The notes below the pieces were generated by a model. That model did no database searches, was not told the DNA's origin, and saw nothing but the letters and a program-made list of their open reading frames with translations. A stretch of DNA of 62,375 bases, counting the filler, from Globobulimina sp. (taxonomy: Eukaryota): assembly GCA_003354225.1 (NCBI GenBank). It is 21 parts of 21 records of this genome, joined end to end, with 100 filler letters (N's around TTAATTAATTAA, not from the genome) between each part and the next. Parts side by side here need not be neighbours in the genome. Positions count along the whole stretch, not along the records: positions 20,833 to 23,708 come from PIVH01004530.1; 20 more parts are not named here. One strand, 5' to 3'. Below, one piece after another: positions 14,881 through 62,375 of this stretch (positions are counted from its first letter, which is position 1; every line of letters begins with the position of its first letter). The translations under genes were made by a program, and so were the position numbers.

Positions 14881-17756
14881 TTTGCGGCAAAAACTAGGGA
14901 AAACCATCAAAGAAATACTCAACTTCCACATCAGTAAATACATCAAATCCTCCTTCAATGTCTACAAAATAAAACCCGCAAACATGAATAAATTGAGCAC
15001 CAACATCAAACACAAAAACGCCAACAATAATCGCTATTCCTCGCTAAAATATAGAATGCGCGATCAAACCATCTTAATCAATGCCTGTTGCTTAGTCTTG
15101 GAACAATTGGCGGAGAGAGCCCCGCGGCAATTACAAGAGATATCGTACTATTTCCAGCGACTATTAATCGACCGGAATGCCATTTACTTACAAGATGAAG
15201 AAATAAACGAGCGATTAATGGACGCACTGGCCAGAGTCTGTCAATGTGAGTTGAAATACATGGAAGACACTTACAAAAACACCCAAATGCGCAAGAAAAA
15301 CATGCTCAAACATATCGTGGACGAGTTCGAGGAGGAAGTTGCCATCGAAGAGGAGAAGCAATTATTGTTCGATGTGGCCGACGGCAAAACTGAGGCTAAA
15401 CTCGAAGAAAAGGAAGAAAAAAGAGACAAACATCACAAGCGATTATCGAGCGGGTTGTTCGCGTTCAGTGAGCAACACAACAAACATTGGTACGATGACT
15501 CGTGTACTCGCATAGTGTTCAATGAGTTGGAGAATAATTTCGATGACTCTGTCAACGAAGACAGCAAATTAATAAACCGCGCATTGCGGATCTACGGCGC
15601 TATGATGGTCAAAGTCAATCACAAACTGATCACGCAGCAATTTCTCACCTCGTCGTTGAAAGGGATATTGACGCAGAAATTGACTGTGATATTGCCGTAT
15701 TTGATCGATACTGCCATCAATCAGCAACAGACTCAGATACAGTTCGTGAAAGAGATCGTGCAGTTATTGGTGCAGTCGTATCTGACCAAGTCCTCCTACC
15801 AATTAGATACGAAACGTAAAATTGCCGAAGCGTTTACAGAGCTGTCGTCGAATTTGACGCAGTACAAACTGCGACAGTTTGTGTTGTGCGAGCTGTTGAA
15901 AATGTTCACGACGTTAAGTAAGACCATACTCAACAACCACATCAAGAAAAAAAAGACGTTGGTGTTGGCGAGCAACGAGTTGGGATTGATATTGCCGGCG
16001 ATCGCGGTGTTGTGCACGCCGTTATATCCCACGCATACACAAATTGATGCCGCTGCCACTGCGGTGGAGGAGGATGCCGTGGATGAGGACGTGCAGGTTA
16101 TCGACGAGGAGCATGTGCATATGCACGATGACGATAAAAAGCCAAAGAAAAAGAATATATTCAAACGCAAAAAAAGCCGTCGACATAAGGTATACGCTGC
16201 TTTTTTATTTTACAATTTTGACAGCAAAATGACGTATTTTTTATAACATGACATAAGGAATCTGATGCGGAGGTGTATGAAGCGAAGAAAATCAATACGC
16301 AGCAAGAGGTTGAGGATGGAGAGGGCCCCGAAGATAATCCCACTTATTTTGGTAACAACGAATATATTGCAGAAGAATGGGGCGTCACGTTACAAGGCAA
16401 CCACTCTCAGACAGTAGCAACGTTTCGCGAGTTTTGGAATCAGATTATTTTTTTCGATTTCGTAGCCAGTACGAATAATGAATGTAAAATCTATCTGCAA
16501 AGCATAGCTTCGGTGTCTCCCGTATTGGTGTCTGGTTCCAGTACATTGTTTGGTGGTGGTTTGATCCACGAAGTGTTGAAGAATAAAACCAATTCCATGC
16601 ATATCAACAAACAGATTGTCAGTTTGCGCAGTAAGTTGCAACATATATTGCCGCGGGAAGTGGACGTGCAACATTTAGAGCCGGATGTGCTGTTATTTTT
16701 GAATGTGCTGTTTCATGTTGAATCCTTTCGAGTGTATGGTTCTGGCACAGCGTACTCATTGGCACATTACTTAAATGACGCAGGCATTATCCGTATGGGC
16801 AAGACTTTGCAGAGCTGCGTGGAAGCAGTGGTGGACTATGTATTTGACCGCTATTTGCAACATATTTATCAAAGTAAGGCGTCGAGCGAGAAGTTAATAT
16901 CATTGGAGTCGCATACCGAATATCTATTAGCTATGTGCTGCAATCGCAGCAAACGTGTCCGGAGTAAATGTTATAACTGGTTGCAACACAAATTAATTGC
17001 GAATTATTCGTATTTGCAATGGCGGCCGAAATGTTTGCAGCATATCCTGGACATTGTGAGCAAATTAGAGACCTTGATTGACGACGTGAGCACAGAGTTG
17101 TATTCGGTGTATGACTCGCATTCCGTCATTACCTTCAACGAGAAATTCAGTTTGGATTTGCCAGAGGATAGGAAATCGCGTGCGGAGATCCAAACGATTA
17201 TATTAGAAATTGCAGGTTCATGGTTGCATTCTGCATGGAATTTAGCGCCGAGTGAGATGATTAGTGTGGTTGCACATAAATTATCACTGTACAAATCTCC
17301 ATTGTTGTCATCGTTGATGTACACCCAATGCAAATACACCGACATTGCGTCATCGAGTGGCGGCAGCAAACCCAACATGGGACTCATGTACGTCGTGAGT
17401 AAATGTGAGAGATATTTGGGTGTCATGGAAGGGTTATATCGGACACATTTACTACATCACAACACAAAATCATTTGGACAGTCCAAAGCGCAGTTATTTA
17501 TACAGACGTTTAAGAAATATATTGCTCTGCGAAGCAAATCAAACAATAACAACGTGCTGATCGAACAAGGTATGATCGAGGAAATGTATCATTTGGGCGC
17601 GTTAATTGTATGGTCGGATAATAAGAAAATGCGATCAAAACACAAGAATAAATTGCATAATTTTAAATTACCATTGGAAGAGTTGTTGCATTTATTGTGT
17701 ATGGTGCCGGCCATTGTGTTTACAAACAATTTAGTATTGACCGGCACCTTCGTATG
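14881..17756 (+). CDS. PI4KA: Phosphatidylinositol 4-kinase alpha (Stt4), internal helical region (partial, 1 intron)
   Basis: FREFW..IFFDF, LESHTEYLL..CNRSKRVR, LQW..KCLQHILD and LLHLLCMVP..FT..GTFV match the PI4KA solenoid. Intron at 16190-16257. Confidence 0.78.
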
Positions 17757-20732: not shown

Positions 20733-20833
20733 NNNNNNNNNNNNNNNNNNNNNNNNNNNNNNNNNNNNNNNNNNNNTTAATTAATTAANNNNNNNNNNNN
20801 NNNNNNNNNNNNNNNNNNNNNNNNNNNNNNNNT

Positions 20834-20974
20834 AAAGATCCTAATGTTGATGCGGTTTTTAATGGGGAATATGAAATTTCTTGTAGTAATGACGATTGTT
20901 TAGCTGTTTATACTCCTGGTACTAATCTAACATTAGCAGATGCAATCAAAGAATGGAATAGAGCAATGTTATAA
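20834..20974 (+). CDS. Lar-family restriction-alleviation-like Zn-binding protein, C-terminal fragment
   Basis: Manual translation KDPNVDAVFNGEYEISCSNDDCLAVYTPGTNLTLADAIKEWNRAML*. The C...C followed by AI..WNR pattern is typical of Lar-like phage proteins. Confidence 0.6.
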   Translation, partial: KDPNVDAVFNGEYEISCSNDDCLAVYTPGTNLTLADAIKEWNRAML

Positions 20975-20982
20975 ATATTCAT

Positions 20983-21360
20983 ATGACAAGAATATCTCAT
21001 AGGAAAACCATATTATCAGTAAATAAGAAGACACCATATCTATTCTTTGCCTTAGATGATGAAATTAATAAAGCAACAGGCAAGAATGATATCTACGTTT
21101 GTGTATTGGTGAAGAAATACACACCAGTAGAAGGTGATGGTATTGAGGATTTATTCCTTTGTACTAAAGTTGATAGAAATGAAGTAAGACCTATTTACCA
21201 AATGAAATTAGACGAATTATCGTATTTTATGAGAATCAATATGGATTTGTACACCATATCTACTGATATATGGCGGCCTAAACATATTTTACTGAATCCG
21301 GTAAATTATGAAAAGGTTCCCGATATCTGGTTTCCTACAAGTTTAGACGTACTTAGCTAA
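20983..21360 (+). CDS. Phage hypothetical protein
   Basis: 125-aa ORF 8 nt downstream of the previous stop, followed by a terminator. Confidence 0.75.
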   Translation: MTRISHRKTILSVNKKTPYLFFALDDEINKATGKNDIYVCVLVKKYTPVEGDGIEDLFLCTKVDRNEVRPIYQMKLDELSYFMRINMDLYTISTDIWRPKHILLNPVNYEKVPDIWFPTSLDVLS

Positions 21361-21387
21361 GTTTAGCTAACCAATTACCCCCTCCAG

Positions 21388-21426
21388 TGGCCTAGATTGA
21401 ATTTATTTTTAATCTAGGCCATTTTT
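21388..21426 (+). terminator. Rho-independent terminator
   Basis: 11-bp stem TGGCCTAGATT / AATCTAGGCCA followed by TTTTT. Confidence 0.8.
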
Positions 21427-21429
21427 ATA

Positions 21430-21458
21430 TTGACATACCCATTTTCCTATGTTAGAAT
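21430..21458 (+). promoter_or_regulatory. Consensus sigma70 promoter with extended -10
   Basis: TTGACA (21430-21435), 17-nt spacer, TAGAAT (21453-21458) preceded by TGn. SD GGAGG at 21474-21478. Confidence 0.85.
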
Positions 21459-21483
21459 CTCCTCAGACTTAATGGAGGTCTGA

Positions 21484-21807
21484 ATGAGATCTATAAAAAA
21501 CGAACAAGAGTTGGTAGGGAAGACTATTAAGTCTTTTACCACTAATTCAATGGAAGAATCTATTTGTTTAACTTTTGAGGATGATACCTTTGTTATATTC
21601 AAAATAGGCCGTAATTGAGGTGAATATGATGATATTGATATCGAGTATGAACCAGATATGGGTATGTTAAGAAATTGTGATATTCTATCCAATGAAACAT
21701 ACTGTGAATGGTACAAAGGGGATAGACTAAAATACGCAAAAAGACGATATTTCTGTAAAACAGAATATGAACAATATTTAGAATTACAAGGAGAAAATAA
21801 TGAATGA
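21484..21807 (+). pseudogene. Phage ORF (107 codons) with one in-frame TGA at 21616-21618
   Basis: SD plus ATG: MRSIKNEQELVGKTIKSF...KIGRN*GEYDDIDIEY...YLELQGENNE*. The second half stays open and ends overlapping the next start codon. Confidence 0.65.
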
Positions 21808-22180
21808 AAATTTACAAAAAGCATTAGCAGAGATCTTAGAGTCAGCATTAGCGGCTAAAGACTTCATCGTATCAGAAACACCAGAAGTAATCCAACAATT
21901 ACTCACTTACAATTTTACTATGAGTATTATACAAACTGTATGTGGAATTATCTTATGGTTATTGTTAATCCCATTATATAAAATTTCTAGAAAACTAGAG
22001 AATGACGCAGAGGGCACCTATATGACAGAGGTACCAACTATTATAGGAACTGTGGTTGGCGTTGTTATGGTTCTACTCGGCTGTGCCCTAACCTTCAACC
22101 TAACATGGCTTAAAATCTGGTTAGCACCGAAGGTGTATTTAATCGAATATATGACTGACATAGTAAAGAACAATACTTAG
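21800..22180 (+). CDS. Phage membrane protein
   Basis: SD AAGGAG, two TM helices, PEVIQQLL and WLKIWLAPKVYLIEY motifs that I recall from phage hypothetical membrane proteins. Confidence 0.8.
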   Translation: MNENLQKALAEILESALAAKDFIVSETPEVIQQLLTYNFTMSIIQTVCGIILWLLLIPLYKISRKLENDAEGTYMTEVPTIIGTVVGVVMVLLGCALTFNLTWLKIWLAPKVYLIEYMTDIVKNNT

Positions 22181-22287
22181 AATGGAGGCCCTTCACTTCA
22201 ATAGTAAGGGGTTACTATTACTTTTCAAAATTATTGGACTCAGTGCTGTGTAAGGCACCTTAAAATGGATATTAAAGGAGAATTGTT

Positions 22288-22629
22288 ATGTTGATGGTAG
22301 TTATTGGGATTTTAATATTAGTAGTTGGATTGACCACATGCGTGGCTCTATGTTATGAGGGTGAATATATTAAAGCAAGTACTTCATTTCTAGTTATACT
22401 TGTTGGTAGCTTTTTAATATATTTCGGGGTTATCGAAGAAGATAAACAAATGGAAATCGATAAACAAGTTGTAAGAGAAATTACAATCATGGTAAACAAT
22501 GAAGTAATTTACAGTGGATTACTCAAAGGTGAAATGAGTTTACCAAAATCATATTTTAAACGTATGCAGAATGGTGATAAGTTAAATGTTCTTTATAATG
22601 ATGTTATGAAGGGGGATGACGATGGTTAA
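22288..22629 (+). CDS. Phage membrane protein
   Basis: SD AAAGGAG, two N-terminal TM helices. Confidence 0.75.
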   Translation: MLMVVIGILILVVGLTTCVALCYEGEYIKASTSFLVILVGSFLIYFGVIEEDKQMEIDKQVVREITIMVNNEVIYSGLLKGEMSLPKSYFKRMQNGDKLNVLYNDVMKGDDDG

Positions 22630-22903
22630 CTTTTATTTAATTTCTACTTGTATTGCCATCATTACCGTTATAATACTTGCAGTCACCAACCATAGAAGTG
22701 AAATGAATGAATATGGTTATGTTATATATAATATTGGGGCGATTATTATAATCACCTTAATAACTATTACACCCGTATTAAACTCTATACTCATTCTTAT
22801 GGTGTTGTACAGTGGGTTGGTAGGGGTATTAGAATATATATTAGATCAAGAATTTACAATTACTAAGAAAGGAGATAAAGATGACAACAGCATGGGAAGA
22901 TAG
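22616..22903 (+). CDS. Phage membrane protein
   Basis: Overlaps the upstream gene, has 2-3 hydrophobic helices and a G-rich SD. Confidence 0.7.
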   Translation: MTMVNFYLISTCIAIITVIILAVTNHRSEMNEYGYVIYNIGAIIIITLITITPVLNSILILMVLYSGLVGVLEYILDQEFTITKKGDKDDNSMGR

Positions 22904-23087
22904 TGGTGATAACAAAGGGAAATATGATGAAAGTGTCAAATTTCTAGAGGAAACTATGAATAATATTAACGAATATTGTACAACTGATTGTATTCAAAAT
23001 ATTAAATCACAAGACGATAGACGATTTTTATACAGCTTTTATTTTAGATTGAAACGAGATCTGAAACTTCTTAAAGGTTTAAAATGA
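22881..23087 (+). CDS. Phage hypothetical protein
   Basis: SD AAGGAG; ATGA overlap with the next gene. Confidence 0.7.
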   Translation: MTTAWEDSGDNKGKYDESVKFLEETMNNINEYCTTDCIQNIKSQDDRRFLYSFYFRLKRDLKLLKGLK

Positions 23088-23521
23088 AACGTAGAGATTT
23101 CATAAAATGTACTATAGCTACAGTAGCCGGTGTGATATCAACATCGGTATTACCGGCATTACCTGAAGAAGATATTATAGTATGGGGTGAAAAAACTCTA
23201 AAACAGACTAGTTTTTCTAGACTTGATAATAGAAGAACTGTCCGATATATACAAAAAGTGGTCACACAGATATATGGCAAGTATATTGGTGAAATAAACG
23301 ATGATATAACTAGAACTTCAATGACCTACGATATCAATAAACAATTAGATCATTTATTGAATAATAATTATATAGACGAATATATGACAGTTATAGATGA
23401 ATGTAATAATGGACTTAAAGAAATAGATGCAAATAATTTGAATGTAGATGTGTATATTAAATTCGATAGAACATTACCATATACACGTTTATCATTTAAT
23501 TGTAAAAGGAGTAAATTATGA
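23084..23521 (+). CDS. Tat-like signal peptide fused to phage tail-sheath C-terminal domain
   Basis: N-terminus MKRRDFIK plus hydrophobic stretch; then IIVWGEKTL..FSRLDNRR..EINDDITR..VIDECNN..IDANNLNVDVYIK..RLSF, matching the gp18-type sheath C-terminal pattern. Confidence 0.8.
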   Translation: MKRRDFIKCTIATVAGVISTSVLPALPEEDIIVWGEKTLKQTSFSRLDNRRTVRYIQKVVTQIYGKYIGEINDDITRTSMTYDINKQLDHLLNNNYIDEYMTVIDECNNGLKEIDANNLNVDVYIKFDRTLPYTRLSFNCKRSKL

Positions 23522-23708
23522 AATTAGTAATAAATAAGTGTTTTGGTGGATTTGGATTAAGTGTTGAGGGACAAAAATTATATGCTAAAAAAGCAGGGTT
23601 CGAATTGCACTATTACAAACAAACAAAACATCAGCATAGAGATGGTGTAGACGAATGGGTTAAAATTGGAGAAGATGATGGTAGTCTTTTCATCGCCTCA
23701 GTTACTAA
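23518..23708 (+). CDS. Conserved phage hypothetical protein (3'-truncated)
   Basis: SD AAGGAG; N-terminus MKLVINKCFGGFGLS, which I recall as a recurrent phage hypothetical family. Confidence 0.75.
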
Positions 23709-24148
23709 NNNNNNNNNNNNNNNNNNNNNNNNNNNNNNNNNNNNNNNNNNNNTTAATTAATTAANNNNNNNNNNNNNNNNNNNNNNNNNNNNNNNNNNNN
23801 NNNNNNNNATTCTAAAGTATTGATAATTTTGGACACAATGTCTCTGTTCACCGAGTCATTCGATGCATTCGGGAAACTTCTTGATTCACCGAGCCCAAAT
23901 TCACTGAGTGTCAGAAAACGTGATTCGGTGATTCGACAGTTCAAAACTACTGATCATTAATGGAATGTTGGTAAAATACGTAATTAAAATTTGACCCTAG
24001 GTCCTAATTAAAATATGCTTCAAAAATTTGACGTTGTTACAATTTGTTGCAATTGCGATTACGCAATTTACCAACATTCCCTTAACAACGACTGACGTGT
24101 TGCACATTCTTTCACTGCAGTGTTTTTTAATTTTCAGCATAGTGTCAT

Positions 24149-26243
24149 AATGCTGGTATTGCAACGTGGATCTGCACAATTATCATACTCGCGGATACTA
24201 TTTATCCGGTTCCACTCTCATTCAACAAGGAACACGCCATCACCGACAGAATTCATTGTTACAAACACAAGCAATATTCTCGAATCACCACAAAATACGG
24301 AAAAACAAATGCATACTGAACAACATACCAACATTTTTAAAAATGCATTGAACAACATACCAACGCGTATTTTGCATCAATTATTAAAAAAAAATCGTAT
24401 AAAAGTGTCTTCCGCACAGAACCATAACAACAGAAACTATAAATATACGCCACCAAAAAAACTATTATTATCCAAACTATTTAGATTAACAAATTACAAC
24501 ACTCACAAAGCATCCTCTCCGTCACGCTTAGAAATCAATAATTTTGTCAACTTCTCCTCGGAATTGGTACGCAAAACCTGTTTAAAATTACGTGATTTGA
24601 ATGAATTTTATAATACAAATTACCATTTAATTAACACAAATCACCCATTTTATCAAACAGTGTCATTATTAATTGCAGAAATAAACACATTAAACAGAAA
24701 CATTTATGAAATATCAACCTCACACTCCAATCCATCCATTGATATCAATCCAAATAACACACACAATTTTGATCAATTAAAAAGAGATTTTCTTTATGAA
24801 TTATTGCCATCAATACACGACATCGATGATGAGAACAACAGTAAACATGACCATGATATGATAAAATTATGCCAAATATTTATAAAATTTATAAATTTCC
24901 CACGTTTCACAATGTTTGATCACATTCAATACATATCGCATTTATGTCATATTGATGAGATTTTAAATGGATTTTTAATCAAAAGAGTACATCCTTCGCG
25001 AACACAATATTACAATGAAAATAATAAAGATTCGGATAAGTATAACGACGACGAATACGATGATGAATATGATGACGATCAAGAATTTGAAGCAGATATT
25101 CAAATAAAAGATGAAAATGGAAATAATGTACCATTTCAAATACAAAGTGCCAGAACTTTATCAAAAACGGCACAGAAACAGTCGTTTCCGATGGACGAAG
25201 ATAAAGTAAATCAGTTATATATGAATCGCTTAAAAAATATTTATAAAATGGATTTGGCGCAATATGGTGTGTTTGGAATGGACGAAAACGTCCAAAATCA
25301 ATTAAAACGTGCACTATTATCACGTGGTTTACATCCATCATTTATTACCAATAAATCTCACAAAAACGCTAAAAATGATAACGTTTCCGCTTCGGACTTT
25401 GACGGAGATGGCACTAATAATGTGACTATAGAACATAATAAAGGAATTTTATTGCATGGCCCGCCAGGAACAGGCAAGACATTGTTGGCAAAATCATTAA
25501 AATATTTATTATTGACCGGTGAAGAGAACGTCTCCATAGTGAATGGACCAGAAATTGAGGACACATACATCGGACAAACGGAGAAAAACATTCGCAATTT
25601 ATTTGAAAATGCGAAGAATGATTCTAAACAGTATGGGGAACACAGTCCGTTACATATTATAATATTTGATGAGATTGATAGCATTGCAAAGAAAAGAGAT
25701 TCCAGCTCCAATTCAAAAGTGTATGACAAGGCCGTCCAACAGTTATTATCTTGTTTAGATGGCGCGAATACATTGAATAATGTGTTAACCATTGGCACCA
25801 CGAACAGATATCAAGATATTGATAATGCGTTATTGAGGCCGGGCCGGTTTGGGTGCCATATATTTATGAGTTTGCCCGACGAACAGCAAAGATATGATTT
25901 GTTGACAAATTGTTGTGGAGATATAGCGACGATGATGGATATGGAAAGTAACGGCGTTGGATGTGACTTGAAATGGTTAATAAATTTAACCGAAGGACTG
26001 TCGCATTCAGATATTGTTGCTTTATTGATACAAAGTAAAATTAATGGGATGGAGAGGATTATACAGGAATGGTTTGAAAAGAATGAAGAAGATGATGATT
26101 TGTATGAAAATATAAGGCAGAATTTTAAGATTAGTTCAAGAGATATTGTTTGTGCGTTGGACGAAATTAGGATCAATCAAGTTTATAGGGAACGTAATAA
26201 CAGACAATTAAATGATCACTATGCATATGATATTGTGTTTTAA
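24149..26243 (+). CDS. NSF/Sec18-like AAA+ ATPase with a single AAA module
   Basis: KGILLHGPPGTGKT, VNGPEI, SPLHIIIFDEID, QLLSCLDG, IGTTNR and ALLRPGRF form an NSF D1-type domain. The start position is uncertain. Confidence 0.85.
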
Positions 26244-35708: not shown

Positions 35709-38099
35709 GATTGTATTTTCTCAATTTCGTCATCTTTATTTTTGATAGTTTTTGAATATTTTAACTTTAAGTTTTCAAATTGTTTGGCTTGTTGCACAAT
35801 TTTAGCTTGATTTGGTTTATTTGTTTTATTAAATCGTAACATTTTTTTGCAAAACAATTGATATAATATTTTACCAGACATATTTTGCACATTAATGTCA
35901 TAATTACTATAATTGCTATCTGTGGATATCGTCGTTTCTCCGTCACCATCGTTATAATGATGCTTCTCATTAATATTATCATTGACATTGGACAGCGTTA
36001 AGCCACCTCTTCCATAATGACGAGGTTTCTGTTTCTTTCTGTAATTTCGTTTGCCACTCTCACTCTTATTTTGTTGCAATAAATTTGAAATATAGCTATT
36101 ATTATGGGCCTCAACGTCACTTTGTTGCTGTTGTTTTGATAATATTTTGAATATATTATGGATGAATAATATTGCATTGCTGATATCTTTCGAATTGGAT
36201 CTGGAGTTTAAAGCATTTATTATTGACGATATTAATGATGAGCCGCATAAACTGGTTTTTAATAAATATGAAACTCCGACAATATCTTCGCTCAGCGAAC
36301 AAATTAAATTTATTAAAGATAAAAATATTTGGTTTGGTTCGCTATTTTTATTATGTTTATGTGTGTACGGACATAAAAAATAAGCTAAATCCTGAATGTT
36401 TATTAATTCAGCAAAGCAAGTTTTGAATTCATTGGATTCTCTGCATAATAAATTTAATAATTCTATAAAATACATAATATATTTTTGTGATTGGTTTAAC
36501 AGTGAATAATCTTCGATATGTCCTGAAAAACATAATTTTCTCATTATGCTGTTTCCCTTTATTTCGGTCTCTGTGTCGCCAAATAAAATATTGCATGCAT
36601 CCACAACAAAGCACATTTTACGCAAATCCGATACAAACTGTTCATTTGTATTGGAATTCGCATTTAAATTAAAATTAATCGAGTTATTATTCTCAATGTC
36701 ATCAATATCTGCCTCGCGGGGATAATTATGCGAATTACAGGTAAATATTTCACATAAATCGTCATTTAAATGCTGCGATTTTATGGTTGTCGCAAGAAAT
36801 TTAACCGCATAAATACAAATATTCACATCTGAATTTAAAAGGGCATGATTGTATAAGCATAATTTCAATACAACACTGAAATAATTGTCTTGTTTCAATA
36901 ATTTTAAAACAATTAATTGTATCTTGTTTGATGCCATTAAAATATTTAAAAACTTTAAAATTAATAAACAATACTGATTGGATAATAATAATGGGAACAA
37001 TTTGCGAACCGTTTTCTTTAATTTGGGATAATTTGCCAAGTACAAAAATATTGTATCATTCGCTACCATGCTCGATAACAAATCAATGCTAATTTCTAAC
37101 ATTTTAATATCTGTTGTTATTCCATGAAGAATCAAATTAAATATAAGTTGAAACACAATGTTAATATTATTTTTGTGGAATAATTGTGACTGCAATGCAT
37201 CATTTATTACTAATTTGGCAACGATAAACAACGAATATAGAACAATCCACATGTTTTTATTTCCCATTAATCGGCTTAGTTTTTTATATAATTTTTTCAA
37301 ATTCGATAATGATTTAATATGTCTCTGCATTGATAGACCATCTTTACTAACAATAATATTGTACAATGTCACCAATTTTGGCAAATTATTTCGATCGGAT
37401 TCATATTCACGAATAATGCATTCAATAAAATTGTTTATTAAATATTTGATTTGTGGTACTTTGCGAACGCAAATATTTGTTGAAATATATTGTAATATTA
37501 TCTCATATTCGTATATCATTACATTGTCATTACAATCTATTATGTGTTTAATGATGAAATTAATAAATGATATATCGTCTGATAATCGTAGACACCAATT
37601 ATTTTTACAACTCACTGTATAATGTGTTGTCGTAATTAATTTCGGAAAAACAAAAAGAAAGAAAGAAAATTAGTTTAACTGATTTGTGACAGTAATTGAA
37701 TAGTAATTTGGTGGATGAATGATTGGATATGAGTATGTTGGATAATTATGGATAATGATTTTGTGAAATATAATCTGTCATTTGATGAAAATGACGATAC
37801 TGCATTCTCAATAAATGAGTCAAAATTACAGGTATTCACATTAGAGACATTGTGACCATCTATGCCTGTCTTAACAAATTAATTAAACAAAATAAATGTC
37901 AATACAATTATAAGGAAATGAATAATACCAATTCATGCAATAAAGACATTAATGCTGTCTCTGTGTTCATATCACATTCATTGCATTCACCATTTTTGTG
38001 ATGGTTTGGACATAACGATTTTAAACAAAATTGTACAAAGTTTGTAAGATGTGGTGATGTATCACAATGAAAGAAGAAGGTGGACCCTGATTGGTTCAT
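35709..38099 (-). CDS. CIP2A-like armadillo plus coiled-coil protein (5' exons uncertain, 3'-truncated)
   Basis: IKSLSNLKKLYKKL..IVLYSLFIVAKLVIN..QLFHKNNINIVFQLIFNLILHG closely parallels my recollection of CIP2A ([33 protein letters not shown]). Confidence 0.72.
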
Positions 38100-41681: not shown

Positions 41682-44223
41682 TTAATTTGCTTTTGCTTGA
41701 GCATTTTTCTGCTTTTTCATTACATTCAAAGATGATCCAGCCTTAAACCATTCAATTTGCTTTTCATTAAAACTATGCTGCAAAACAATACCATCACATA
41801 ATGCTCCATCCCGTTTCCTAACAATTAATGTCAATCCACTGTGTGGCGCCAATTCACGTAAACCAACAATGCTCACTTTATCTCCCGTTTCTATTTTACT
41901 GTAATCCTTGGCGTCATTGAATGTCAATGGGAGCATCCCTTGTTTCTTCAAATTAGTTTCATGAATCCGCGCAAATGATTTTGCGATCACCGCCACGCCG
42001 CCTAAGTATCTCGGCGATAAAGCCGCATGTTCCCGACTTGAGCCCTCCCCATAATTGTCTCCACCGACCACAATCCATGGAATATTATTTTGTTTGTAAG
42101 CTCTGGCCGTATCAGGCACAGCTTCCTCTATTCCCGACAACATATTCATTACACAGTTCTCTTTGCCATTTGCATCGTTTATGACTCCAATAAAGGTATT
42201 ATTTGATAATATATCCAAATGTCCCCGATATTTCAGCCACGGACCGGCCATCGAGATATGGTCGGTGGTGCATTTCCCTCTGGCTTTAATTAAGACCATT
42301 GCTTCCAACGTGTCTTCGCCATTCCATTCAAATTGGAATTCGTCAATCAATGCAATGCGTTGGCTGTTTGGATCAATATCAATTTGGACACTGTCAGGAT
42401 CAGCAGACGGTGCTTGATATATATCATTCAAGTCACACTCGAAGCCATTTGGCGGTAGGAAGTCACCGCTCGGGGCCTCAAATTTAAACCCATTGATTTC
42501 ATCCGTCACTGGATTGAATTTTAAGTGTCCGGCAAATGCCAAAGCAGTGCATATCTCCGGTGAGGTTATAAATGAATGCGTGACTGCATTGCCATCATTT
42601 CGTTTCGCAAAATTTCTATTAAATGACACAGCGATGGAATTAGGTTGCGATGGGTCAAATGTATCTGTTTTATCCCGCTGCCATTGTCCAATACACGGAC
42701 CACAAGAATTGGATAAAATTGTACAGCCCACTGACTCCAAAACATCCTGTATTCCATCCCGTGCTATGGTTGCACGGATTTGTTCACTTCCAGGCGATAC
42801 AAAAAATGGTATCTTAGCGCGTAAGCCGGCATTTTTTGCCTGTTTAACCAAGGAAGCAACGCGCGACATGTCTTCGTATGAGCTGTTAGTGCAAGAACCA
42901 ATTAACACTGCGGATAGTTGCTGTGGCCACTTATTTGTATCCAATGCATCGTTTATTTCCTGACCTAAACTATGCCGCAATTCCGGAGTGAATGGTCCAT
43001 TTAAAGCTGGTGTCAATTGATTCAAATCAATGTGTAGAATCTTATCAAAATCTGTAAAGGCAGTATCACTTCGTAGCAAGTCATCCTTTATAGATTCACA
43101 TTGATCCGCAACATACGCTCTTTGTGTAGCGGTTAAATATTGTTTCATTGAGTCTGTATAACCAAACAATGACGTCGTAGCACCACATTCTGCGCCCATG
43201 TTACAAATGGTTGCCATCCCAGTACATGAAATATTATCTACTCCGTCTCCAAAATATTCGATAACATATCCTGTGCCGCCAGACACGCCCAAAACATCCA
43301 CTATTTTCAATATAATATCTTTGGGCGTACACCATTCATGTAAGTGACCAGTCAATTCAACGCCAATTATTTTAGGTGTTTTCAGCTCCCATGGCAAGCC
43401 ACTCATTGTTTCGACGACTTCGGATATTCCCACGCCAATACCCGCCATACTGTAGCCACATACATATATTTTGCAAACACGTTTTCATAGATTTGCATAC
43501 GTTAAACCCCCCGCATTTGGTGAATGAGAATCTGTTGCCACCATTAAACCGGACGGAAAGGCGTAATTTTCCAAAATTATTTGATGGATAATACCGCTCC
43601 CTTTGGTGCGTTGTAATAATTGCATGGAAGTGGCTGTATATAACAAAACAAAAAATAGATATACCTGCTTTCCAAAAGCCAACACCATATTTGTTGCAGG
43701 CGGATGCTAAGAAACTATGCAATTCGTTATGCTCTTTGCCTGAAACAATCAAATCCTGCGCAGAGCCGCTATGCGCACGGATTATATGGTCACAATGCAA
43801 CGTGGTTGGAATTGCGGTTTGCTGCATTCCGGAAGATATGAATTGTAATAATGCCATCGGTCCGGATGCGTCATGAGTTGCGATGCGATCTGCTTGTAAT
43901 ACTAAATGAGATTCGCCGCGTTTGATATTGGATGCGGTTTCGGGGTCTGATAAATGAGAATATAATACTTTCTCTGCCAGAGATAATGGGCGATTCAGTT
44001 TTTTACGAACTGTTGACAGATTATCCATGAGTTTGTCATATGGCAGTTCTGTGTTTGGTTCTAGCTTTGAGATTGGCGATGAGAATAAACGGAGTGAGTG
44101 AGACAACCAGGCATTGTAATTGAGACGGAGTGCCTATATGTCATATTAAAGATGTGTGAATAATTGTGTAGATTGGGTTGCATTTCATACTGAGTTTAAA
44201 CGGAATTTGGTCCAAATCGACAT
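41682..44223 (-). CDS. ACO2: Mitochondrial-type aconitate hydratase (3 introns)
   Basis: Presequence [66 protein letters not shown] and GSSREHAA. Introns at 44134-44190, 43601-43664 and 43450-43500. Confidence 0.93.
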
Positions 44224-59518: not shown

Positions 59519-62375
59519 ATGTCATATTATCAGATGTCTTGCAACAAAAATCAGATGTCTTGCAACAATGTGAGAGCAATTAATATTGAATCTGACAATG
59601 AAGATACCGATGATTTAAGTGACTATATATTCAAAAAAGGGTATGAGTCGATTTCAGCACTCAACAGAAGCAGCAACTTATCACCGCATCATCATAATAC
59701 CATTAATATTATTGCCAATAAATGGAGTAAATTGTTTGCAAATTCATTATTTTGGATTAGAATTTTAACGTTATTCTTAGCTATAATATTATTAATATTA
59801 TGCAGTGCATACTGCGTTGCTCAAATACTAAACGTCGAATTAGATCTGGTCACTGAATGTGAGCCAAAAACGAATGAAGAAATTTGGAGACATTCTGCGC
59901 AAAATGCACAAAATGCTACAATGACATACGAGACACAGTATGGACTCACAAAGGAAGCATGTTACACCACCAATGCGTATGAAATAAATACACATAAGTT
60001 ATGGTACAGTAATTATTATAAAGCGCAATGGAAATCAAATATAAATGCAAAATGTGTGTTGTTTGGATCGATGGTCGTATACTGTTTGTTGTTAATGATT
60101 TATATATCGTATACCATTGTGTTTGATGTTGTTTGTGTGCAACAACATCGATTACACACAAAGTCAGTACATTTTATCAACAAATTTGATGCAAATAAAA
60201 ACAGAACTGAAGCAAATACAAAATGTAACAAATGTTTGCGTATTTACAATAAATATTTCTCCACAGATAACATCGGATGGATTGTATTATGTTTTGGTAA
60301 CGAAATGGTTGAAATTGTATTGCAATCCAACGCCTTGCTCTATTACAATGGATACAATGTTTTTGATTCACAAACAATTTCTTCAGCGTATAAACCTGAG
60401 TTCGTTGTGTTGTTTACCATAATTATTGCATTCAATTGTTGCGGATCTGCTGTTTTATGGCTGTTATACAGTTTACTCAATTACCAATGCCATGGATTAA
60501 CATTCAAACTGTCATTGTTTTTTGTGGATCAGTTTTCCGATTTGTTTTATTCAATGTTCCCATTTATTGTCATTGTTGGTGACCCATACAATGAAAATAC
60601 AAATATTTATGTGTTATTGGGACAGTTAAATCTCAATTCCGTGTTAACGTTCGTTTCTGCAGCTATTCCGTTGTTATTTTTATGTATAAAATGTTTAATG
60701 ATTACAAATAAATGTACCAGAAAGTTGCACGAACATTTTTATTATGACTGGAAGCTGATTCGTGATCTATCCAAGCAACAAAATAATGTATTAGCTGCAT
60801 ATAAAGCGCAGTTACAAGGATACAATGTTAATGTCAATGTGTTGTCAAATAATCAGGAAATGTATGATGGAAATGGAAAGTTAAAGAATGAGTTTGCATT
60901 CCGACACAATGATGAAACAAATGGATTGAAGAGTAAATGGGGCAAATTGTTGTTGGTCGTCACAGCGTTATGTTACATAGCATATGCAATAACAATCTTG
61001 ATTTTAGTCATTAATTACCTGCACCAATCCGAATCACATTGTGACTCAATTAAGGAAGATAAATATTTCATGCATGGTACAAATGGTTCAGTGTTATTGG
61101 AGAATATTACGTTATCACCAAAAGAGATTGCTTTATTTGGTGCGAATCCAGAGTTATTTTTATGGGACGCTTGCGAGTACAAAGTTTACCCATTTACCAG
61201 CAATGAGGAATATAAATGTCAATGCAAAGTATTAGTGATTGAAGATTGGAAACAATTGAAATCGACACAATATGATAGGATGAGATATTTCAATCTAACG
61301 CAGCACAAATTGATTACTGGCATGTTGCGACATTGGTCAATGTTGGAAAAGTTCCGTACTGTGGGTATTGAAGGAGAGAGAGCAGATTTTAGCTTTGAAT
61401 TAAAATCTACATTGTTTGCATCGGCAAATATGAAAGCATTCGAGTGGATAAATGCCAATGTTGTATTGAAAGAAAATGGTATTTCGAAGTGGAGTCAATT
61501 AGAATACTTAAAATTTGAACAGGTGGAGGCATTATCATTTTCGTCGACTGATATCCATCAATTGAACCACTTGAAGTTATTATCGTTAATATATAGCGGC
61601 TTGAATGAATTCTCAGTGCAAATCTGCGATATGAGCTCTTTGGAGGTATTGCTATTTCGTTGGAATTATAATGTTGAAATAATCCCAGATTGTATTGTCA
61701 ATCTGCAACAATTGAAATTATTGTCCATTGATGGAGCTGTTGGTTTGCTCTATATTCCGCTCGCTGTATTTAGTTTGCCCAACTTATTTGATTTAAGTTT
61801 ATTTCGAGCATCTATTACCTCTCAAAGCTTATTGTCATATAATAATAACACAAATGATTTTGATTTTAATTCACATACAAATTATTGGTTACAAAAAAAT
61901 CCAATTTGTAGTGAGGATGTGAGTACATTGCCGACCGCATTAGCTGCCTTCATGACGAATAACCGCACAAAATGTCATTATGAATGTGACGATTATTTGC
62001 AAATTGAACATCACCAATTGGCGGAATCCTGTATTCCATTGTTATTAGGCGATGGAAAATGCGATGACAGATGCAATGTACCACAATGTGGATATGACAA
62101 AGGTAGGTACTGCACCACAATATTTATATAAATTGAATAACATATAATATTATAAAGGAGATTGTGTTCAATTGTGCTTTGCAGAAAATGCAGATTATAC
62201 AAATTGTAGCTGGGATAAATACACCAATACTAAATGTGATGTCGACTGTGACAATGAATATTGTACTGGCTATCTTTCAGAATCAAATTTTGAAATAATT
62301 GTCAGTTTTACAGGAAACAATGCAGATTTAGAAGAATGTGAAGGCGCAGAGTGGGCATTGAAATATAAGGAGGAA
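59519..62375 (+). CDS. Multipass membrane protein with leucine-rich repeats and LNR (Notch-like) repeats, truncated
   Basis: About 7 TM helices; LRRs (LEYLKF, LKLLSL, IPDCIVNLQQLKLLSI); LNR motif GDGKCDDRCNVPQCGYDKG; a second CD..C...YC unit after a probable intron at about 62104. Confidence 0.75.

Follow-up and report, generated by a model that had tools for sequence, protein, structure and literature searches.

A phage gene that fuses a twin-arginine type signal with a stand-alone innermost tail-sheath domain

The locus and its gene

The window analyzed here is a stretch of 62,375 bases from the assembly of Globobulimina sp. (GCA_003354225.1), made up of 21 pieces of 2,873-2,876 bp each, ordered by size and separated by 100-base linkers (N around TTAATTAATTAA). 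Because these pieces are unrelated contigs joined by linkers, the real context of the gene described below is limited to positions 20,833-23,708. This contig (2,876 bp, GC content 31.5%, coverage ~5x) looks like DNA of a bacterium-infecting phage, with three of its nine open reading frames (ORFs) matching PHROG families at E <= 1e-7; no match to phages was found by blastn. At 23,084-23,521 it carries a gene, hereafter the mini-sheath gene, for a protein of 145 amino acids that combines a predicted twin-arginine translocation (Tat) type signal with the innermost domain of a tail sheath. Its features are:

23084..23521, + strand: gene for the Tat-leader plus sheath-domain protein, 145 aa (ORF, Pfam, PHROG, tblastn, HMMER, AlphaFold2, profile and Foldseek matches)
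23073..23077, + strand: ribosome-binding site AAAGG, 6 bases 5' of the ATG (read from the sequence)
23084..23158, + strand: predicted twin-arginine type signal, residues 1-25, KRRDFIK and then 19 uncharged residues to LPA; cleavage after A25 uncertain
23204..23503, + strand: sheath C-terminal (innermost) domain, residues 41-140, with two long helices, a short helix and three strands; predicted local distance difference test (pLDDT) > 90 (PHROG, AlphaFold2, profile, Foldseek)

The ORF runs from an ATG at 23,084 to a TGA at 23,519-23,521, an in-frame TAA (23,072-23,074) lies four codons upstream, and ATGA overlaps tie it to both the upstream ORF (22,881-23,087) and the downstream ORF (beginning at 23,518). 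A sequence-only reading of this stretch had described a complete 145-aa ORF coupled on both sides in this way, and the coordinates, the stop codons, and the ribosome-binding site bear it out. The protein begins MKRRDFIK-CTIATVAGVISTSVLPALP, and contains the motifs VWGEKTL, NRR, NDDITR, DECNN, and IDANNLNVDVYIK. The same reading had allowed for a chimeric or frameshifted join to a normal sheath gene; none was seen, a Logan contig of run X1 covering 22,841-23,617 with zero differences, although this is not independent support because run X1 is probably the source of the assembly. Two further runs of the same sample (X2 and X3) did not cover the target stretch, and there was no RNA dataset among the sequencing runs listed for it. 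Protein records held no identical protein, a word-indexed search with the single protein gave 0 matches, and an exact 45-mer of the gene was not in IMG/VR. Read from its sequence, 23,084-23,521 is an intact phage gene that encodes a Tat-type signal, a short linker and the innermost sheath domain, without the other domains of a sheath.

The sheath domain

Six tail-sheath PHROGs were matched at E <= 0.0017 (the best at 1.9e-17, another at 9.6e-15), with the last ~100 profile positions covered. By tblastn, residues 25-145 of the protein matched sheath genes of 322 phage records with an identity of ~30%; among the 40 records listed, 34 bear a sheath annotation (in one case 'tail sheath stabilizer' under gp18), and six have another name or none. 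The Pfam family PF17482 (Phage_sheath_1C) scores the protein at 23.4 bits, slightly below its cut-off of 26.9, and matches 20 of the 21 members of the family of relatives described below, which places the C-terminal sheath domain in nearly all of them. A profile built from that family aligned with residues 513-652 of the 659 residues of T4 gp18 (E 2e-36) and with the sheath of Klebsiella phage KP1 (E 1.3e-37); matches to Pvc2 and Afp2, sheaths of extracellular contractile injection systems, were far weaker.

An AlphaFold2 model computed from a 38-row alignment had a pLDDT of 83 overall and > 90 at residues 41-140; residues 1-40 were predicted at low confidence, with a helix at 3-17. The top Foldseek matches of the model were T4 and KP1 sheath chains (E 1.8e-4 to 1e-3), and T4 gp25 (5iw9) was also matched, at E 6.3e-3 and a TM score of 0.46-0.52. 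Residues 41-140 are presumably the counterpart of domain IV of gp18, with its strand-exchange contacts. The claim that this is the conserved innermost domain of gp18-like sheaths thus stands, PHROG, the gp18 profile match, AlphaFold2 and Foldseek all agreeing. The best structural match in BFVD was a viral protein of 148 aa (UniProt A0A7S5RC61), with an alignment of 143 columns that takes in the N-terminal helix; this entry is perhaps a family member from a sequenced phage. Its origin in a Rhizobium phage was considered, and the one T4-like Rhizobium phage searched gave no support for that. Neighbors in the ESM Atlas scored only 0.80 and are a lead at most. The core motif ND..TR is retained in 22 of 24 family members versus 72 of 118 long sheaths, and core motifs in general are kept at least as often in the family.

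The leader

Tat signals have an n-region of consensus S/T-R-R-x-F-L-K followed by an uncharged h-region, and they place the passenger domain on the periplasmic side of the membrane. In the 145-aa protein the n-region is K-R-R-D-F-I-K (residues 2-8) and the h-region consists of 19 uncharged residues with a mean Kyte-Doolittle value of 1.57; over 24 family members the h-region is 12-28 residues long. On the consensus, see also PMC7317946. In most relatives the hydrophobic stretch ends in a site of the A-x-A type (AFA, ALA, VVA, SLA, ASA, and similar).

The pattern RRx[FLIV][LIF]K plus 13 uncharged residues occurs only once in the 149 window ORFs of >=60 aa (21,166 residues), namely in the 23,084-23,521 gene. 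Because the motif is unique among window ORFs and is also conserved in relatives, the leader is not a chance feature. A 21-row alignment, whose members are roughly 24-34% identical to the 145-aa protein, shows no exception at R4 and a conservation of at least 90% at R3 and K8. An RR or KR within residues 2-6 followed by 12-28 uncharged residues was found in all 24 family members versus none of 118 long sheaths. Family profiles gave matches at E <= 0.1 to the Tat-signal families PF10518 in eight and TIGR01409 in nine of 21 members.

A family in uncultured phages

HMMER was run against 1.84 billion cluster representatives; of the 919 hits that reached E <= 1e-3, the best 150 were examined. Thirty-three were shorter than 200 aa, and 20 of the 33 start M-x(0-3)-[RK]R-x-F/L-L/I-K and continue with an uncharged stretch; the short homologues therefore do not generally lack the RR leader, as the sequence-only reading had recognized they might. 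Adding the 145-aa protein, P0151 and two metagenomic loci to these 20 gives the 24 leader-bearing members referred to above. Some of the remaining 13 short hits begin with non-ATG codons and are nested among long sheaths, and these are probably fragments. Three others of the 13 (P0001, P0023, and P0122) belong, with P0152 from a separate protein search, to a leaderless group taken up below.

In a FastTree phylogeny of the domain, made from an alignment that included the leader columns, all 118 long sheaths fell in one 124-row group with a support of 92, and 23 of the 24 leader-bearing rows lay outside that group on branches of 0.7-1.8 versus a median of 0.32. A tree of the core columns was poorly resolved; on it the leader label required 10 changes versus a mean of 22.6 after shuffling, with none of 500 shuffles as low. 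An approximately unbiased (AU) test did not reject a single clade of all 24 leader-bearing members (p 0.349), and the sequences are compatible with a single old origin of the family.

A word-indexed protein search with the family alignment returned six proteins, which carries little information on family size. An alignment search gave 593 confirmed loci, and the best 80 consisted of long sheath genes or of frames truncated at the end of a contig, none of them with a leader start; and a locus search with the 145-aa protein alone found no relative. Nevertheless, the profile hits and the metagenomic loci described next show, at the level of sequence, that a leader plus a stand-alone sheath domain defines a conserved, diverged family in uncultured phages, some of them T4-superfamily myophages. 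The fusion is thus a conserved phage architecture, in which a known domain has likely taken on a new role.

Loci that carry the gene

It had been proposed that viral metagenomes be searched for the same short architecture, and four such loci were found. Scans with degenerate motifs gave one true (L082) and one false (L081) match in IMG/VR and three true matches (L083, L084, and L085) in JGI metagenomes; these counts are lower bounds because the patterns, which require an ATGA start and fixed spacing windows, match only part of the family. A scan of 185,579 prokaryote species, each represented by a single genome, gave 0 matches to the motif pattern. The L082 locus is 5.5 kb long and the other three range from 1.4 to 6.7 kb. 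Two of the four are fragments of T4-superfamily myophages: L082 encodes a peptidase found in 462 phage records, nearly all of them T4-like cyanophages or pelagiphages, and L084 encodes a gp23-like capsid paralogue (E 1.4e-23 to T4 gp23), with jumbo myophages of roughly 350 kb as the nearest relatives in culture. At 218-4104 of L084, genes for an RF-1-domain protein, a CheY-like receiver-domain protein, a phrog_1866 protein and the capsid paralogue surround the mini-sheath gene and form an unusual accessory cluster. On the 1.6-kb contig of L083, a gene for a GIY-YIG homing endonuclease (984-1616; phrog_314, E 1.7e-32) is found close to the mini-sheath gene, which hints that this region is mobile or variable.

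None of the five gene contexts (the 145-aa gene and the four loci) is a tail module. In cultured phages, a tblastn search with five members gave, among the matches listed, only places at or over sheath genes, and in six complete T4-superfamily genomes the family profile matched once each, in the full-length sheath frame (678-1,002 aa), with no short gene. From the T4-type neighbors we infer that the carriers also encode their own full sheath.

Genes and signals around the 145-aa gene

The noteworthy ORFs of the phage contig are all on the same strand, and several have overlapping stop and start codons. Besides the features listed above, the contig contains:

21386..21423, + strand: intrinsic-terminator-like hairpin, 16 pairs and then a T run, closing the upstream unit (from the sequence)
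21430..21458, + strand: sigma70-type promoter-like site TTGACA-17-TAGAAT, with TG before the -10, 11/12; the best-scoring such site in the contig
21800..22180, + strand: small protein of 126 aa with two hydrophobic segments, phrog_3054 (function unknown), E 1.9e-22 (PHROG)
22288..22629, + strand: ORF of 113 aa with two N-terminal hydrophobic segments, no Pfam or PHROG family
22616..22903, + strand: ORF of 95 aa with three hydrophobic segments, no Pfam or PHROG family
22881..23087, + strand: soluble ORF of 68 aa whose stop overlaps the mini-sheath start (ATGA)
23518..23708, + strand: downstream ORF, 63 aa before the contig end, phrog_16527 (function unknown), E 1.3e-7 (PHROG)

Three ORFs with hydrophobic segments thus lie between the promoter-like site and the mini-sheath gene. 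The gene had been placed outside a tail operon, downstream of a sigma70-like site and among small hydrophobic ORFs, and this location is confirmed. The downstream ORF (23,518-23,708) is not a tail tube gene, and no phage match to it was found. Relatives of the phrog_3054-type protein occur in 32 phage records, the named hosts of which are Gram-negative (Salmonella, Vibrio, Escherichia, Klebsiella, etc.). The hairpin terminator and the near-consensus extended -10 promoter are no more than 7 bases apart, and 21,386-21,458 looks like a clean boundary between transcription units; overall, the contig has 19 promoter-like sites versus 17.8 in shuffled sequences, i.e., no excess.

Comparison with known systems

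Residues 41-140 are homologous to the last ~140 residues of T4-type sheaths (gp18; PF04984 plus PF17482; PDB 3j2m and 9mkb) and have the same fold, and the motifs LDRxNxRR, ELNDxxTR, VVCDETNNTP, and ID.N.L..D.Y.KP are common to both. However, T4-type sheaths are ~650-1,200 aa long, whereas the 145-aa mini-sheath has neither the N-terminal arm nor the outer domains (there is no PF04984 hit). Unlike those sheaths, it also has an export signal, no adjoining tube gene and an early-type promoter-like site upstream; in cultured phages a tube gene follows the sheath gene, and the mini-sheath gene does not lie in such a tail module. A full sheath protein was considered and is ruled out by the missing N-terminal arm, the lack of PF04984, the length, and the lack of a tube-gene neighbor.

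T4 gp25/TssE (5iw9) is a small, stand-alone initiator of sheath polymerization of ~130 aa that shares the fold of the inner sheath domain, and it is a known case in which such a fold, as a detached domain, has taken on a role for itself. It is, however, a baseplate component that is assembled in the cytoplasm without a signal peptide, and the mini-sheath sequence is far closer to gp18. Membership in the gp25 family was rejected, as there was no GPW_gp25 Pfam hit at E <= 1 and the similarity is one of fold only.

T4 Spackle and Imm are small early proteins of the periplasm or inner membrane that bind incoming injection parts, and the likeness of the mini-sheath to them is confined to the proposed mode of action. 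To our knowledge, neither protein is exported via a twin-arginine leader, no Pfam or PHROG hit to Imm or Spackle was obtained for the 145-aa ORF or its neighbors, and neither was among the Foldseek matches. In PMC7677548 Spackle is described as periplasmic and as binding the gp5 lysozyme, and in bioRxiv 10.64898/2026.03.06.709160 Imm is described as binding the tape measure protein. With bacterial Tat substrates (PF10518/TIGR01409) the mini-sheath has in common the n-region, a moderately hydrophobic and uncharged h-region and, in most members, A-x-A sites; it differs from them in being phage-encoded and in having a virion-derived passenger without a cofactor.

Possible functions

The host Tat translocase would move the already folded domain across the inner membrane, and it would be a natural route because the sheath domain evolved to fold in the cytoplasm. 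In most members signal peptidase would then free the domain into the periplasm, whereas the 145-aa protein itself may remain anchored in the membrane. Judged by the leader, Tat-dependent export of the folded domain is probable. Once in the envelope, the domain would use its tube-facing surface to hold on to the tube, or to something associated with the tube, when another contractile phage, a tailocin, or a type VI spike passes through the periplasm, and such binding would block or report superinfection. The reading that we prefer is that the protein is a periplasmic binder of incoming tail tubes or tube-tip proteins, serving to exclude or sense superinfection; arguing by analogy, we give it a probability of about 0.35. 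Tube binding is favored because the domain is built to touch parts of contractile machines, and the tube is the part that both crosses the periplasm and faces the domain in the extended tail. An early accessory gene would be expected in just such a place as that of the mini-sheath gene, after a sigma70-type promoter-like site and a few small hydrophobic ORFs and away from any tail module. In a bolder form that we regard as speculative, the detached tube-facing domain might clamp the naked tubes of later injectors (a sibling phage, a tailocin, or a type VI spike) and so halt delivery.

Several observations weigh against tube binding in the periplasm, or against export itself. The earlier statement that the MKRRDFIK leader fits the Tat consensus is upheld by conservation of the motif in relatives, but the PF10518 score of the 145-aa protein itself is 13.9 bits, under the cut-off of 22.7; the protein has no NCBIfam match (TIGR01409 included), and its probable cleavage site, LPA|L, is poor, with L at -3 and P at -2. 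The net charge of the domain is the same as in full-length sheaths (p 0.85), so that nothing indicates that it has adapted to a charged tube surface. The contact between sheath and tube in known tails is weak and polymer-dependent. No full-length sheath was seen in any carrier phage, the longest member locus being 6.7 kb. There is no conserved neighbor, the small upstream ORFs in the window, L083, and L085 being unrelated, and the contig comes from a eukaryote assembly. Finally, a separate group of at least four stand-alone sheath domains (P0001, P0023, P0122, and P0152) lacks the leader. These are 130-155 aa long and share a C-terminal tail of ~18 additional residues, with the same ending ...PD.LFRMD in P0001 and P0023, the two compared; either they represent a mini-sheath family of the cytoplasm, or possibly sheath genes have been split and these are the 3' parts, and, because such relatives exist, the detached domain may work in the cytoplasm too.

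These leaderless relatives, together with the poor cleavage site of the 145-aa protein, speak for an explanation that we nevertheless consider improbable, in which the leader serves as a membrane anchor without being cleaved, or as a tag that is only transient, while the domain, on the cytoplasmic side, caps or poisons sheath polymerization (of competing phages, host tailocins, or the host type VI system) or acts as a decoy for sheath-sensing defence. Such inhibition would take place via the strand-exchange contacts of the inner sheath domain, and the fold match to gp25 (5iw9, E 6.3e-3) suggests that a detached domain can engage sheath subunits. Yet a Tat signal orients its passenger to the periplasm, good A-x-A sites are present in most members, and maintenance of the leader across divergence to ~30% identity would be hard to explain if export were irrelevant. 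The periplasmic destination that the A-x-A sites imply fits envelope exclusion better than it fits a decoy for a cytoplasmic sensor or an inhibitor of sheath assembly. Accepting export, however, does not single out tube binding: the evidence from the leader and the folded domain applies equally to other roles in the envelope, nothing points specifically to tubes, and the surrounding genes differ between loci, as would be expected of accessory genes with diverse roles. The protein might be a sensor for superinfection or lysis timing (T4 antiholin RI is the model for a sensor that couples superinfection to lysis timing), a carrier that exports a bound partner without a signal of its own by Tat hitchhiking, a competitor for the Tat translocon, or a peptidoglycan or membrane scaffold. 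We regard these other roles, taken together, as possible though on the unlikely side; the retained core sheath motifs suggest that the interaction goes back to the sheath and is not altogether new, and no conserved partner gene adjoins the mini-sheath gene, which argues against obligate hitchhiking with a neighbor.

A last reading is that the gene is not functional: it would be the decaying remnant of a sheath gene, a chimera made in assembly, or the 3' end of a sheath gene that is split or recoded, or its Tat-like N-terminus would be due to chance in AT-rich DNA. Its contig is indeed short, thinly covered, and a stray in a eukaryote assembly, and an identical protein was absent from the records searched. 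Nonetheless, we judge this very improbable: the frame is intact, with a ribosome-binding site and ATGA coupling on both sides; the in-frame TAA just upstream closes the frame and no sheath-like ORF occurs in the 2.2 kb before it; the same short design with its leader recurs in 23 other diverged proteins; the leader motif is unique among the window ORFs; and the Logan contig, even if not independent, spans the gene without a difference.

Both modules, the tail sheath domain and the Tat signal, are textbook material, and their fusion into a small, presumably exported protein is an invention that phages have conserved. No description of a Tat-signal sheath-domain protein was found in the full-text literature searched, supplements aside; in the Tat review PMC13673990, a term search found neither 'bacteriophage' nor 'viral' in the main text and 'phage-encoded' in the references only. 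As predicted here, a structural domain of the virion is reused as an accessory protein targeted to the envelope, which would extend the known cargo of Tat to phage proteins and could reveal a new way for a phage to defend the infected cell, or to sense attack, against contractile injection machines. If the domain binds tail tubes, it would be a natural tube-binding reagent; if it clamps them, superinfection exclusion and anti-tailocin immunity would gain a new class that is structurally self-derived, a part of the virion serving as a weapon against virions.

Other pieces of the window

Apparent neighbors on opposite sides of a linker are unrelated. The piece adjoining the phage contig contains a 707-aa ORF (24,120-26,243) that has no relation to the mini-sheath gene; its N-terminal half is asparagine-rich and of low complexity, and it carries a Walker A motif, GPPGTGKT, with the look of an AAA-type ATPase. 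Six of ten large ORFs from nine other pieces match eukaryotic-looking or general Pfam families; the matches include XK-related plus ankyrin, the N-terminal region of PI4-kinase, CIP2A, aconitase, and LRR families (936-2,876, 16,252-17,754, 35,711-37,669, 41,685-43,484, and 59,519-62,128). By these matches the assembly is mostly eukaryotic and AT-rich, with long unbroken ORFs, and the 2.9-kb contig is a stray phage fragment within it.

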